Shown one piece after another: positions 3,400-7,097 of a stretch of 7,097 nucleotides of DNA; the stretch's first letter is position 1; each line of letters opens with the position of its first letter. The notes under the pieces were generated by a model, which was not told the DNA's origin, searched no databases, and saw only the letters and a list, made by a program, of their open reading frames with translations. This stretch comes from a virus (lineage: Duplodnaviria > Heunggongvirae > Uroviricota > Caudoviricetes): IMG/VR virus record IMGVR_UViG_2671180846_000033; one strand, given 5' to 3'. The position numbers and the translations under genes were made by a program.

Positions 3400-3449
3400 N
3401 NNNNNNNNNNNNNNNNNNNNNNNNNNNNNNNNNNNNNNNNNNNNNNNNN
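3400..3449. other. Run of 50 N at the O-like/P-like gene junction
   Basis: Directly visible in the sequence. Confidence 1.
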
Positions 3450-4254: not shown

Positions 4255-4692
4255 TCAATGCACCACAACAGACTCGCCGGATGACCCGCCGTCGCTGAAA
4301 TACGCTTTCCGGTAAACTGCCTGGACTGCATCATCATGCGCATCAATTGCCGTGCTCAACGCTTCCTGGGCCGCCAGTAATGCACGGCGCTCAACAGTGT
4401 CAAAAATACTGAGGTGATAACGCAGTTCACGCGGAAGAACAGTCAGGATAGCTGGAATTAGTGCCTGAATTTTTTCAACAGCATCAGGCGTATCCTTTTC
4501 AAGCCAGCGAAAAATATTTTGTATGTTCAATCCAATACCCTCTGTCGTAGAGGTGTCATGCATTGGTGGATAAGTCATTTCAAGCTCAAAATATGCTGTC
4601 GCTATATCATCAGCGATTTTTTTGCGCCCTACCCTCGGATAAAGCAGCCACGCATTCATCGCCATGCGGATGTGCTCATGCTTGATTTTCAT
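4255..4692 (-). CDS. ydaT: YdaT-like protein (CII functional analogue of YdaS/YdaT-type prophages)
   Basis: 145-aa ORF starting MKIKHEHI with a C-terminal segment LIPAILTVLPRELRYHLSIFDTVERRALLAAQEALSTAIDAHDDAVQAVYRKAYF that I recognise as YdaT-family. Its ATG (4692-4690) overlaps the upstream gene's TGA in an ATGA junction. Confidence 0.75.
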   Translation of the reverse strand: MKIKHEHIRMAMNAWLLYPRVGRKKIADDIATAYFELEMTYPPMHDTSTTEGIGLNIQNIFRWLEKDTPDAVEKIQALIPAILTVLPRELRYHLSIFDTVERRALLAAQEALSTAIDAHDDAVQAVYRKAYFSDGGSSGESVVVH

Positions 4693-4949
4693 GAATCAAC
4701 TCCCGCCGCTGCTTGTGCGTTAGCCTGATACTCAACAGGTAAACCATCGGTTGGATTAGGGTATTTATCAGGGCGCAATTCATGCGGAGTTACTCCCCAG
4801 TCAAGCGCCTCACATGCTGGTATAACCTCCTCCGCTGGCACTCGTTTTTTAAACCACCCACTTATGGTTTGCGGTGTTTTACCAAGACGACGCCCTAATT
4901 CTGATTGGCTCATTATTGACAGGATTTTCACTTGAGTACTTTTTTGCAT
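4689..4949 (-). CDS. ydaS: Cro-like HTH regulator, YdaS-like
   Basis: 86-aa ORF with ATG at 4949 preceded by GGAGGG. HTH segment SQSELGRRLGKTPQTISGW; divergent from the repressor gene. Confidence 0.7.
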   Translation of the reverse strand: MQKSTQVKILSIMSQSELGRRLGKTPQTISGWFKKRVPAEEVIPACEALDWGVTPHELRPDKYPNPTDGLPVEYQANAQAAAGVDS

Positions 4950-5075
4950 GTTTCCCTCCGAACTTTACGATGACACCGATAATTACAAATTTAAATTTAA
5001 ATTTCAACTTCTATTTGTAATGCCACTTATCAATTTTTTCTGTAGGATCGCGGAACTAGTTTACGAGGGGTGGTG
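4950..5075. promoter_or_regulatory. Divergent control region between the Cro-like and CI-like genes (OR-like)
   Basis: ATTACAAAT (4982-4990) and its reverse complement ATTTGTAAT (5013-5021) flank a palindromic (AAATTT)x3 tract (4987-5004). The 14-bp motif AATTACAAATTTAA (4981-4994) recurs at 6223-6236. Ribosome-binding sites for both flanking genes are present. Confidence 0.6.
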
Positions 5076-5468
5076 ATGATCTTTGTAAAACGCCTTCAGC
5101 AGGTGTTGCAGGAATTGAATATAAACCAGTCAGAGCTGGGAAGACGTCTTGGTGTAAAACCCCAATCCGTGCAAGGTTGGTTGAAAGGCGTGATGCCAAG
5201 AATGGATAAACTGGAAAAATTAGCAGAGCTCTCACAACATCCCGTCCATTGGTTCTTTATGGAAGAAGAAACTCTCGGCGATAAAATGGCTGTATCCAGT
5301 AATGACAACCAACCGCAACTTACAGAACAACAACGAAAAATCATATCGCTTTTAGATGAGTTACCTCAAAGCGACGCAGAGCAGATCATTCGTGATATGG
5401 AGCAAAAACGCGATTTCTATAAACGGAAACTTGAAGAGTTACTGCGGCAGAAAAACAAAACTGCCTGA
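5076..5468 (+). CDS. CI-like phage repressor, XRE-family HTH with coiled-coil-like C-terminus and no S24 peptidase domain
   Basis: The track ORF starts at GTG 5070; ATG at 5076 is preceded by GAGGGG (5065-5070). HTH segment NQSELGRRLGVKPQSVQGW; C-terminal 50 aa are charged and heptad-like. About 130 aa, too short for a LexA-type cleavage domain. Confidence 0.8.
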   Translation: MIFVKRLQQVLQELNINQSELGRRLGVKPQSVQGWLKGVMPRMDKLEKLAELSQHPVHWFFMEEETLGDKMAVSSNDNQPQLTEQQRKIISLLDELPQSDAEQIIRDMEQKRDFYKRKLEELLRQKNKTA

Positions 5469-5499
5469 TGCATTCCTTTTCTGGAACGAGCATCAGGCA
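5462..5499. terminator. Hairpin between the convergent repressor and higA genes (candidate bidirectional terminator)
   Basis: TGCCTGATGC (5462-5471) pairs with GCATCAGGCA (5490-5499), with inner TTCC/GGAA pairing. A T-rich tract follows on the minus strand (reverse complement of 5441-5461). Confidence 0.5.
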
Positions 5500-5514
5500 A
5501 ATGACTAGCAGATT

Positions 5515-5874
5515 TTATAATCCAACCAGGCTTTCCAGGGGGATACCAAATTGATTATGAAGACGGCGAATCATTGGTAACGTAAGGCTTCTGGTACCAT
5601 TCAACACCTCATAAACCCGATTTTTTTTCCCAATTGCGGGTTCCAAATCTTTCACAGTCAGCCCCTGCTGTTCCATGCGAAATCTTATAGCTTCAATTGG
5701 GGATGGTGGCTCAATGGGATAATGTTTTTTTTCATATTCCTCTATTAGCAAACACATCACCTCAAAAAAATCCCCCTCAGGCGTGTCAATTTCGGGCTCA
5801 TTGTCGAACATGGGTTCAACAGCACGCAACGCGGCTTCATAATCTTGCTCTGTACGAATAGGTTTGATGTTCAT
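5515..5874 (-). CDS. higA: HigA-type antitoxin (XRE HTH, type II TA)
   Basis: 119-aa ORF with C-terminal HTH LTVKDLEPAIGKKNRVYEVLNGTRSLTLPMIRRL. Starts 2 nt after the toxin stop, with GGAG upstream. Confidence 0.8.
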   Translation of the reverse strand: MNIKPIRTEQDYEAALRAVEPMFDNEPEIDTPEGDFFEVMCLLIEEYEKKHYPIEPPSPIEAIRFRMEQQGLTVKDLEPAIGKKNRVYEVLNGTRSLTLPMIRRLHNQFGIPLESLVGL

Positions 5875-5876
5875 GC

Positions 5877-6179
5877 TTACTCCAGTTCGATGGTATCAGC
5901 ATCAATAGCATCGTATTCCTTGTGGTTTCCGATGAATTTAACAAATACCCATCCTCGCTGATACGCAATTGCAACAATTAAACGGTAATGATTACCTTTT
6001 ATGTTGAATACCACGCGCCGGTTTTTCAATATACTGGCCGTTCGGTATTGTGCCTTAATGTCTGCTGGGCTTTTCCAGTCAGCTTTTGCCGCCTCATCCA
6101 CCCATGCCCTTAGCGGTTGTTCTGCATCAGGATTCTCCGCCCAAAAATCCCTGAGTGTTTTAACTGAGATAATCTTCAT
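5877..6179 (-). CDS. higB: HigB-type toxin (RelE/ParE superfamily)
   Basis: HigB-like pattern in the translation, including GNHYRLIV and KFIGNHKEYDAID. The track start (6224) is a TTG; the ATG at 6179 gives about 100 aa. Toxin precedes antitoxin, as in HigBA modules. Confidence 0.8.
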   Translation of the reverse strand: MKIISVKTLRDFWAENPDAEQPLRAWVDEAAKADWKSPADIKAQYRTASILKNRRVVFNIKGNHYRLIVAIAYQRGWVFVKFIGNHKEYDAIDADTIELE

Positions 6180-6190
6180 AACTGTATAGT

Positions 6191-6207
6191 AGTCCCATTT
6201 TGGGACT
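6191..6207. promoter_or_regulatory. Perfect 17-bp palindrome AGTCCCATTTTGGGACT just upstream of higB (candidate HigA/HigBA operator)
   Basis: Read directly from the sequence; lies 12-28 nt upstream of the higB ATG on the minus strand. Confidence 0.5.
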
Positions 6208-6222
6208 GATGCAACAGCCCGC

Positions 6223-6276
6223 AATTACAAATTTAATAATAAACATGTTGACCAGTTAAATTTTAATTTGTAAATT
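6223..6276 (+). promoter_or_regulatory. pL-like promoter/operator region for the rightward early operon (OL-like)
   Basis: Second copy of AATTACAAATTTAA (6223-6236); TTGACC (6248-6253), 17-bp spacer, TAAATT (6271-6276); inverted ATTTGTAA (6266-6273) overlaps the -10. Confidence 0.5.
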
Positions 6277-6457
6277 GTATCCATAAACCCACCCCGCCCC
6301 ACAGAACGCAGGGCAATACTTCGAGTTACCCGGCAGTGGTCAGGGGTTAAGTAGCCAGCCTGAGGCGTATGAACATGACGGCGGGGATTACGTTTAACTA
6401 TGCAGCAGGTTTTTTGTTCCGCTACCCCGGCGTTAAGGGGAAACAGAGGATTTCTCA

Positions 6458-6814
6458 GTGGGCGAAGTCAAACATCAGAATGGAAGGCATCCAGGGATCA
6501 GCAAAGAAACAGCGATGGCGCTTTATATTGATATCAGCGCCATTGCCGGACAGGTAAGAATTATCAGAGCGGTAACTAAGCGGTATGCGCCTTTACTTCA
6601 GAAAGTCTCTGGTGAGTGCACCGAAGATATTGTCAACGATTTCGTCATCAAACTGCGAGGACTCATCTTCAGTTACAAGGTGACCACAATTTTTGCAGAT
6701 GGCTCCCGCGAAACTGTCAGAGCCCTGCGGCTTAAAGGATGTGTCAAAGACTTAGCCACCACATTCTGGGCAAGAAAACTTGATTGTATTCATAACCAAT
6801 TTCCTCTCGAGTAA
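6458..6814 (+). CDS. Hypothetical early-left operon protein
   Basis: 118-aa ORF from GTG 6458 (AGAGGA 7 nt upstream) or about 100 aa from ATG 6515. No family recognised. Confidence 0.5.
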   Translation: MGEVKHQNGRHPGISKETAMALYIDISAIAGQVRIIRAVTKRYAPLLQKVSGECTEDIVNDFVIKLRGLIFSYKVTTIFADGSRETVRALRLKGCVKDLATTFWARKLDCIHNQFPLE

Positions 6815-6885
6815 CAGACCCCTCAGAGGATACCACCTCGCCTGACGTGGTTAAAAGCAGGCAGCGCTAACCACAAGGAGCCGAC

Positions 6886-7097
6886 ATGCAGAAACGAGAA
6901 CCCGTCATCATCGCGCCAGACTATACCGATGATGAACTTTATGAGTGGATGCACCAGAAAATTAAGGCAGCGCAGGACCTGAAATGGGCCAATGAAGCCA
7001 GGGCTAAGCAGGCTGAAAATCTGTCCGCTCTGGAGCAGGATATCACCAATCTGGAAAAAGCAGCGGCATTAAGCATTGCCAGAATGATTACATACCC
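6886..7097 (+). CDS. Hypothetical early-left operon protein, 5' part (runs off the window end)
   Basis: ATG at 6886 preceded by AAGGAG (6876-6881). Open frame to the window end; translation begins MQKREPVIIAPDYTDDELYEW and continues with a coiled-coil-like segment. Not in the ORF track because no stop is reached. Confidence 0.55.
   Translation, partial: MQKREPVIIAPDYTDDELYEWMHQKIKAAQDLKWANEARAKQAENLSALEQDITNLEKAAALSIARMITY

Follow-up and report, generated by a model that had tools for sequence, protein, structure and literature searches.

A 7,097-nucleotide stretch of DNA from a Caudoviricetes virus record (IMG/VR IMGVR_UViG_2671180846_000033), here called the window, carries at positions 5076 to 5468 the gene for a short repressor protein. 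The window is part of a lambdoid Escherichia coli prophage, and the best overall explanation of the gene, to which we assign a probability of about 0.78, is that it encodes the CI-equivalent maintenance repressor of that prophage and belongs to a short, non-cleavable class of repressors. One part of this explanation can be held with great confidence. Because the protein has neither a peptidase domain nor an Ala-Gly site, it is very probably not subject to RecA-triggered self-cleavage. That it serves as a prophage immunity repressor acting at the proposed right and left operators (OR and OL) is likely as well, at a lower level of confidence.

The repressor protein and its lack of an S24 domain

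The open reading frame (ORF) comprises 130 codons plus a stop on the forward strand, as seen in both the ORF list and the sequence, and the protein is identical to RefSeq WP_000578360.1, which is annotated as a "helix-turn-helix domain-containing protein." Initiation at an alternative in-frame GTG, at 5070, would lengthen the protein by two residues. RefSeq uses the ATG at 5076, and the same start is kept in homologues from Salmonella and Sodalis, with a GAGG located 7 to 8 nucleotides upstream. A Pfam search matched HTH_3 at amino acids 7 to 51 (E value [E] of 6.3e-9), along with weaker, overlapping helix-turn-helix (HTH) models only, and found neither Peptidase_S24 (PF00717) nor any other C-terminal domain down to an E of 0.1. 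The scissile site of cleavable repressors, Ala-Gly or Cys-Gly, is missing, since the 130-amino-acid protein contains neither dipeptide, and the Ser/Lys dyad of S24 repressors is likewise absent from it. An original prediction, made from the DNA letters alone, had described a protein of about 130 amino acids at these coordinates, with an HTH, a charged and coiled-coil-like tail, and no S24 peptidase domain. The coordinates, length, and HTH were all accurate, and the Peptidase_S24 search bears out the missing domain.

The fold was examined with a single-chain AlphaFold2 model that used 18 homologues as input and had a mean predicted local distance difference test score (pLDDT) of 78. Amino acids 2 to 61 form a five-helix bundle (pLDDT above 90), amino acids 66 to 81 are disordered (pLDDT below 50), and two tail helices, at 84 to 94 and 100 to 129, form a helical hairpin in the monomer. 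The model contains no beta structure, and about 47 ordered residues follow the linker. In the tail, the motif L-T-x2-Q-x6-L-x3-L-P-x-S-D precedes a long amphipathic helix, and the charge of the tail was correctly read by the original prediction, since 45% of residues 84 to 130 are charged (11 K+R and 10 D+E). "Coiled-coil-like" is reasonable wording for what the monomer model shows as a helical hairpin. No Pfam model matched this C-terminal helical module.

Structure searches with Foldseek against PDB and BFVD were informative for the N-terminal domain only, which matched P22 c2, 434 repressor and Cro, and SinR N-terminal domains with a root mean square deviation (rmsd) of 1 to 2 Å. Full-length matches had an rmsd of about 10 Å because of the flexible linker. 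A PDB sequence search with the repressor returned matches to the HTH domain only, with no solved relative spanning the tail. The recognition-helix region, KPQSVQGWL, is invariant in the 18 homologues. The comparison with lambda CI, P22 C2, and LexA sums up these features. The role, the map position, and the logic of paired OR and OL regions are the same, and the HTH fold is near those of P22 c2 and the 434 repressor, but those proteins have an S24 domain, an Ala-Gly site, and a Ser/Lys dyad, and the repressor here has none of them. It fails every defining feature of an S24 repressor that was tested except the HTH.

Relatives among short lambdoid repressors

Judged from its sequence, the protein is best filed, as a new member with an immunity type of its own, among the short, non-cleavable lambdoid repressors, a known class that includes DicA, RacR, the Gifsy repressors, and PaaR2. 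The NCBIfam DicA model (NF007257; 135 positions) aligned with amino acids 3 to 129 over model positions 6 to 132 (E of 2.7e-13), and BLASTP against K-12 DicA gave 22% identity over 125 amino acids (E of 2e-7). DicA, from the Qin prophage of E. coli K-12, is of the same length class (135 amino acids) and, as here, has an HTH_3 domain followed by a helical tail with an L-x3-LP-E/Q-S-D/E motif. It also occupies the same map position, with a divergent cro-like gene, and lies on the same strand as the PL-like promoter that drives ydfA/ydfC-dicB. The two systems differ in that DicA is partnered with DicC/YdfX whereas the repressor here pairs with YdaS/YdaT, in that a higBA pair sits here between the repressor and the left promoter (PL), and in their operator sequences. 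DicA is without an Ala-Gly bond and is relieved by the antirepressor Rem (PMC10448788).

Searches of phage genomes with tblastn identified the Gifsy-1/2 repressor (32% identity over amino acids 2 to 105; E of 8e-10), the repressors of SPN3UB and FSL SP-016 (39.6%), a PPompW "dicA" (26% over the full length), and a phiES15 "DicA" (28%). The Gifsy-1, -2, and -3 repressors of Salmonella (GfoR, GtgR/GftR, and GfhR) are short (136 amino acids) and, like the repressor here, have no cleavage motif; the match to them ends at amino acid 105, leaving the long C-terminal helix uncovered. Western blots showed the Gifsy repressors to be uncleaved and intact during induction, when small antirepressors bind and inactivate them, and the same report names DicA and RacR as members of the group (PMC3121763).

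The relationship to PaaR2 (ECs_2279, 123 amino acids), from CP-933P/Sp12 of E. coli O157:H7, is of a different kind. BLASTP aligned the C-terminal half only, and hhalign of the two families paired amino acids 76 to 129 with PaaR2 amino acids 68 to 121 at 98% probability (E of 1.5e-13). PaaR2 itself had no Pfam match. A search with PaaR2 (L008:3659-4030) returned many proteins of about 212 amino acids that carry PF00717 and whose N-terminal half is 70 to 80% identical to PaaR2. The PaaR2 head is thus found with either an S24 domain or the helical module, and the two are therefore alternatives. By these alignments, the tail is a shared module on repressors whose DNA-binding heads are unrelated. 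Using the C-terminal 51 amino acids alone, phmmer gave just 4 matches at an E of 0.001 or lower, the query being too short to chart the distribution of the module.

The likeness to CP-933P extends to the surrounding region. In both, ydaS and ydaT are divergent from the repressor gene, the identical YdaT operator, TTGATT-N6-AATCAA, lies at the ydaS/ydaT junction, and operators are found, or here proposed, at the right promoter (PR) and the promoter for repressor maintenance (PRM) and again at a PL-like promoter past the toxin-antitoxin pair. The flank of Sp12 is nearly identical to window positions 6285 to 7097. PaaR2 has no peptidase motif and has been reinterpreted as a CI analogue, with YdaS as Cro and YdaT as CII, and PaaR2 and YdaS footprint the CP-933P intergenic region and also repress the PL-like promoter beyond the toxin-antitoxin genes (PMC8630535). 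That report, citing earlier work, gives PaaR2 as an octamer (PMC8630535). The two systems also differ. The operator consensus is of the GTTTAGTAA type in CP-933P versus TTACAAAT here. Unlike paaR2, which has a leaderless transcript that it shares with paaA2-parE2, the gene here has a Shine-Dalgarno sequence ahead of its ATG and has higBA on the other strand.

More distant resemblances are architectural. The NCBIfam RstR model, for the CTXphi repressor, matched amino acids 1 to 92 with an E of 5.7e-7, below its cutoff. SinR-SinI and the Phi106 repressor-AimX complex of an arbitrium phage gave full-length Foldseek alignments that are distant (about 10 Å) and at the level of fold and architecture. 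RstR, SinR, and the arbitrium-phage repressors have in common a short repressor with an HTH and a helical C-terminal hook that is countered by a small binding protein.

Candidate operators and promoters

The operator and promoter map was derived from sequence patterns. The spacer between the repressor gene and ydaS is 126 bp long and holds a 40-bp palindrome with arms that are 80% complementary, ending in perfect inverted copies of the 9-mer ATTACAAAT at 4982 to 4990 and 5013 to 5021. This 9-mer recurs at 6224 to 6232, with a one-mismatch inverted copy at 6266 to 6274, and its three exact occurrences compare with 0.10 expected. Four 20-mers, the OR and OL candidates of Table 1, are mutually identical at 13 to 18 of 20 positions and share the core TTACAAAT. 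The locus of the Sodalis homologue has the same OR, plus a PL with the same flanking sites ahead of the same conserved leader. This operator layout is kept in both the Sodalis and the Salmonella modules, and their repressors are 71 to 72% identical to the one here, with the recognition helix invariant.

A candidate PRM lies between these sites and the start codon. An element, CTGTAG(G/T/A)AT, located about 30 nucleotides upstream of the ATG, is conserved together with the GAGG across three diverged loci. OR-b ends at the expected position of the PRM -35 hexamer and has the placement expected of an activating, OR2-like site. The first PRM candidate from the promoter scan, at 4970 to 4997, was set aside in favor of the conserved CTGTAGGAT element.

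Distribution, genomic setting, and the immunity cassette

The repressor gene is real and conserved. At window positions 4600 to 5600, identity to prophages from O26, O103, and related Shiga-toxin-producing strains is 100%, and the identical protein is found on at least 1000 public contigs. Among complete E. coli genomes, 148 of 5426 carry the repressor gene and its upstream region, one copy each, and many of these are O26, O103, and O45 Shiga-toxin-producing strains. Close relatives (50 to 74% identity), all of about 130 amino acids, occur in Salmonella, Sodalis, Arsenophonus, and Serratia.

Outward from the repressor, the opposite strand carries ydaS, ydaT, an O-like gene (DUF1376 plus DnaT), and then P. 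The strand of the repressor continues in complete genomes with ydfC or ydfA/ydfB, dicB, an exonuclease gene, xis, and int; the early-left genes are ydfC/dicB in the E2865 locus and ydfA/ydfB/dicB in the LZSFT34 locus. Inside the immunity block, higBA is convergent with the repressor gene, at the position of rexAB in lambda and paaA2-parE2 in CP-933P. The repressor gene thus maps where cI does in lambda, higBA takes the place of rexAB, and the gene layout matches those of dicA in Qin and paaR2 in Sakai Sp12/CP-933P.

Near-identity to Sakai prophage Sp12 starts abruptly at about 6285, just past the second operator pair, and runs to the window end at 7097. On the other side, a stretch of about 70 bp around the ydaS/ydaT junction, which includes the YdaT operator, shows near-identity to the heteroimmune CP-933P/Sp12. 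The stretch in between, about 4712 to 6285, has a GC content of 42%, versus about 50% in the flanks. Given these junctions and the lower GC content, the stretch would be an immunity-specific cassette. YdaS is 23% identical to its CP-933P counterpart and 69% identical to the YdaS of the Salmonella module, in which the repressor is 72% identical, so YdaS co-varies with the repressor.

Several further observations concern the edges of this cassette. By megablast, pieces at about 4648 to 4704 were the only parts of positions 4600 to 5600 present in sequenced phages (Tritos, Evi, vB_EcoS-666R9, and others). The segment at about 4655 to 4712 looks like a conserved recombination joint plus the region of the promoter for repressor establishment (PRE). 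The leader at 6285 to 6440, downstream of the PL-like promoter, is common to Sp12, LZSFT34, and Sodalis and is partly present in the K-12 dicA-ydfA spacer (GTTCCGCTACCCC.GCGTTAAGGGGAAA). A nutL-like site and a translation signal are both possibilities for it, and a search of the window, including this leader, matched no Rfam family. In Salmonella Javiana (L003:4454-4645), a PaaA2-family antitoxin-like gene follows the 72%-identical repressor on the same strand, with no ParE gene called adjacent. Such arrangements suggest repeated exchange of toxin-antitoxin cargo downstream of the repressor.

TABLE 1 Positions in the window of the repressor gene, its protein regions, proposed control sites, and neighboring features
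Feature	Position	Strand	Evidence
Repressor coding sequence	5076..5468	+	ORF list; RefSeq annotation in E2865 and LZSFT34 loci; conserved ATG and GAGG in homologues
XRE/Cro-CI type HTH domain, amino acids 7-51 (folded domain 2-61)	5094..5228	+	Pfam; AlphaFold2; Foldseek; conservation
Variable acidic disordered linker, amino acids 62-83	5259..5324	+	pLDDT <50 at amino acids 66-81; poorly conserved alignment columns
C-terminal helical module, amino acids 76-129, common to PaaR2 and DicA	5301..5462	+	hhalign; NCBIfam DicA alignment; BLASTP; AlphaFold2
Candidate OR: inverted 20-bp sites OR-a, 4983-5002 (+), TTACAAATTTAAATTTAAAT, and OR-b, 5001-5020 (-), TTACAAATAGAAGTTGAAAT	4983..5020	.	Repeats; arrangement kept in Salmonella and Sodalis
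PR-like ydaS promoter (TTGAAA, 17-nt spacer, TGT-AATTAT), overlapped by OR-a and OR-b	4979..5007	-	Promoter scan; hexamers conserved in homologue loci
Putative PRM -10, CTGTAGGAT (hexamer 5043-5048), and Shine-Dalgarno GAGGGG (5063-5068)	5040..5068	+	Conservation in three diverged loci
Candidate OL/PL: OL-a, 6225-6244 (+), TTACAAATTTAATAATAAAC, and OL-b, 6254-6273 (-), TTACAAATTAAAATTTAACT	6225..6276	+	Repeats; Sodalis layout; cassette edge
PL-like promoter: TTGACC, 17-nt spacer, TAAATT	6248-6253, 6271-6276	+	Promoter scan; OL-a/OL-b flank or overlap; dicBp/PL933P equivalent
Putative immunity-specific mosaic block (ydaS, OR, repressor, higA, higB, OL/PL)	~4712..6285	.	Sp12 alignments; composition
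ydaS, Cro analogue and immunity-specific repressor partner, 86 amino acids	4689..4949	-	Pfam YdaS_toxin, E 1.7e-8; PHROG 35
ydaT, CII analogue, 145 amino acids	4255..4692	-	Pfam YdaT_toxin; PHROG 163 "CII-like activator," E 5e-37; PDB 8bt1 (CP-933P YdaT), E 5e-29
Perfect YdaT operator (OM type), TTGATTTTCATGAATCAA, at ydaS/ydaT junction	4682..4699	.	Consensus from PMC9986795
higB (5877-6179) and higA (5515-5874) toxin-antitoxin pair	5515..6179	-	Pfam HigB_toxin, E 6.6e-33; HTH_3 in HigA; RefSeq

The other end of the window differs in composition. Positions 1 to 1922 are AT rich (37% GC), with an alpha/beta-hydrolase-like ORF (496 to 1269) beside a DUF977 gene. This part was not contiguous with the remaining window in any complete E. 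coli genome searched, and it matches other prophages that carry an IS3-family element insertion there. As a mosaic, the window differs from the O26/O103 prophage. Two masked runs of 50 N bases, at 2344 to 2393 and 3400 to 3449, fall inside a DUF1627-like gene and at the overlap of the O- and P-like genes; the X runs in the ORF translations are due to them.

Proposed mechanism and routes to induction

In the mechanism that we propose, the HTH would bind the four related 20-bp sites with their core TTACAAAT, two of them abutting and inverted over the PR-like ydaS promoter and two flanking or overlapping the PL-like promoter about 1.25 kb away. Bound there, the repressor would keep both PR (ydaS-ydaT-O-P) and PL (the ydfA/ydfC-dicB early-left genes) off. 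The helical module, replacing the S24 peptidase and oligomerization domain of lambda CI, would form dimers and higher oligomers that allow cooperative binding and possibly OR-OL looping across the 1.25 kb; the tail would thus be an oligomerization domain and possibly a docking site for antirepressors. The position of OR-b beside the weak -35 of the putative PRM could permit autoregulation. Derepression could then follow two routes. In one, the bistable switch formed by repressor and YdaS would flip stochastically or under a bias from stress, with YdaT, acting through its site at 4682 to 4699, pushing back toward repressor synthesis. In the other, an antirepressor from the same or a co-resident prophage would bind the repressor.

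Precedents exist for both routes. DicA/DicC switching is bistable, spontaneous, and recA independent and is influenced by urea and heat (PMC10448788), PaaR2 and YdaS likewise constitute a bistable switch (PMC8630535), and Sakai prophages with peptidase-less repressors were not induced by mitomycin C (PMC2669165). YdaT is a CII-like activator of repressor transcription that favors lysogeny (PMC8630535, PMC9986795). The original prediction had inferred that induction probably does not rely on RecA-stimulated self-cleavage, and this is supported by the negative S24 search, the all-helical predicted C terminus, and the homology to the uncleaved or peptidase-less Gifsy, DicA, and PaaR2 repressors. 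It had also offered the YdaS/YdaT circuit as a route to induction. That circuit is not in itself the trigger; what stands is the part of YdaS as a Cro analogue that makes the switch bistable and of YdaT as a CII analogue (PMC8630535, PMC9986795).

By analogy with these systems, the lack of an S24 domain should not be equated with independence from the SOS response, because Gifsy prophages answer SOS via LexA-controlled antirepressors (PMC3121763) and because phiES15, which carries a 134-amino-acid DicA-like repressor, was recovered by ultraviolet (UV) induction. Antirepressor genes do occur in the E2865 prophage. A P22 immI-like module (L009:13133-14728), inserted between tail genes L and K, comprises an Arc-family gene, a second Arc/Mnt-like gene, and a gene for a 307-amino-acid Ant protein (P22_AR_N plus P22_AR_C), and a second P22_AR_N protein is encoded in the lysis cassette (L001:3566-4135). 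The case for the Ant module as the cognate inducer in cis is weakened by its absence from the LZSFT34 prophage, which also lacks the second P22_AR_N gene; the linkage of the module to the repressor is not consistent. A 90-amino-acid ORF before the DUF968 gene, near the position of rem in Qin, was also considered as an antirepressor and rejected, as its product is not similar to Rem and falls in another PHROG.

Our firm commitment is thus limited to a non-cleavable repressor with non-proteolytic derepression, and the remainder is split roughly evenly between antirepressors and bistable switching. An antirepressor as the main physiological inducer is a reasonable proposition that falls somewhat short of an even chance, and mainly spontaneous or bistable switching is on the same footing.

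Weighing of the evidence and alternative explanations

Several observations weigh against the reading of the protein as a CI-equivalent maintenance repressor of the short, non-cleavable class. The operators and promoters are patterns recognized in AT-rich DNA. The 12-mer motif TTACAAATTWAA, whose three occurrences compare with 0.01 expected and which is found nowhere else in the 41 kb of the E2865 prophage, was chosen post hoc, after inspection of the data; in the unbiased form of the comparison, the exact OR 12-mer TTACAAATTTAA recurs at 6225. The oligomeric state is extrapolated from PaaR2 only. Strict class membership is mixed. The protein scores 49.9 bits with the DicA hidden Markov model, below the curated cutoff of 101, and it shares only its tail with PaaR2, the N-terminal domains being non-homologous and giving no alignment in BLASTP or hhalign. 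The LexA-controlled dinI-antirepressor operon that defines the Gifsy type was looked for in the E2865 prophage and not found. A position weight matrix (PWM) scan for a LexA box had no hit of 11 bits or more in the window, and the hits in the E2865 prophage were all weak, inside coding regions, or outside the prophage, although the matrix was built from E. coli boxes known from the literature and a divergent box could escape it. No Rem-like protein or rem homologue was detected by tblastn or PHROG in the prophages examined. The apparently intact LZSFT34 prophage, in which the repressor, YdaS, YdaT, and HigA are all identical, lacks an annotated antirepressor. Finally, the E2865 prophage copy has an integrase gene disrupted by an insertion sequence (IS) and a frameshifted portal gene, and some copies of the repressor may therefore regulate residual prophage genes only.

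Among the alternatives, the one that survives best is Gifsy-type indirect SOS control, in which the prophage encodes, in a LexA-repressed operon at another place, a small antirepressor that removes the repressor from the DNA. The similarity to the Gifsy-1/2 repressor noted above, in a family that is so regulated (PMC3121763), and the recovery of phiES15 after UV both speak for it. We nevertheless consider it unlikely here. No convincing LexA box was seen in the window or the E2865 prophage by exact core, consensus, or PWM, the consensus search finding none with up to 3 mismatches allowed, and the Rem searches just described also count against it. The E2865 Ant gene is flanked by Arc/Mnt-type regulators, not by a LexA box. 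The sole intergenic CTGT-N8-ACAG, the palindrome CTGTTGTCGTCAACAG in the E2865 nin region (L001:12726-12741), was rejected as a LexA box; it has a GC-rich center, lies about 50 bp upstream of parD-parE, and is probably a ParD operator.

A less probable alternative is that the protein serves mainly as the third-component transcriptional regulator in a toxin-antitoxin module, the function first ascribed to PaaR2, and not as a prophage maintenance repressor. The C-terminal module is indeed homologous to that of PaaR2, a PaaA2-family gene follows the Salmonella homologue, and higBA adjoins the repressor gene. However, higBA is on the opposite strand and convergent and is therefore not co-transcribed with the repressor, the repeated sites are at the ydaS promoter and the PL-like promoter at the cassette edge, and PaaR2 has itself been reinterpreted as a CI analogue (PMC8630535). 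The two roles, toxin-antitoxin regulator and maintenance repressor, are mutually compatible. As a separate observation, OL-a lies 45 to 64 bp upstream of the higB start, and the repressor might also affect higBA transcription.

Slightly less probable again is that one of the ATP-dependent proteases of the host (ClpXP, ClpAP, or Lon) controls the repressor level through the linker or the basic tail and that induction results from this regulated degradation. Disorder in the linker extends over about 22 residues, and the C terminus is basic, with Ala as its last residue in almost every homologue (-KNKTA, -NKPA) and in many PaaR2 relatives (-KKA, -RRA). Such a C terminus presumably resembles C-terminal ClpX recognition motifs. 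Against this, the literature consulted on DicA, the Gifsy repressors, and PaaR2 describes no precedent, and the Clp-labile component in CP-933P is the antitoxin PaaA2, not PaaR2 (PMC8630535). RecA-dependent cleavage after all, through an unrecognized catalytic or co-protease arrangement, is scarcely credible for a protein with no S24 domain, no Ala-Gly or Cys-Gly site, no beta-rich domain, and about 47 ordered residues after its linker, whose Gifsy homologues stayed uncleaved in western blots (PMC3121763).

Biological significance

The maintenance repressor proposed here is conceptually not new, its class having already been defined for Gifsy, DicA/RacR, and PaaR2. What is gained is an annotation that improves on "helix-turn-helix domain-containing protein," a testable map of candidate operators and of the immunity cassette, and evidence that one C-terminal helical module recurs on repressors whose DNA-binding heads are unrelated, in alternation with S24.

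A further-reaching proposal, which we regard as speculative and rather doubtful as a whole, is that the tail is a portable module that replaces S24 on different heads, providing oligomerization and antirepressor docking and so converting an SOS-cleavable switch into an SOS-independent, bistable one, and that OL-a may in addition let the repressor co-regulate higBA. If such co-regulation through OL-a is true, loss of the immunity block would be penalized, making it an "addictive" immunity region as proposed for CP-933P.

For E. coli, the immunity type that the repressor marks is present in 148 of 5426 complete genomes, many of them of Shiga-toxin-producing strains. The proposed mechanism predicts no direct response to SOS-inducing antibiotics from the prophages concerned or from their dicB-type cell-division inhibitors and higBA. 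It also predicts that cross-induction by antirepressors of co-resident prophages may be possible and that expression may be bistable and heterogeneous.

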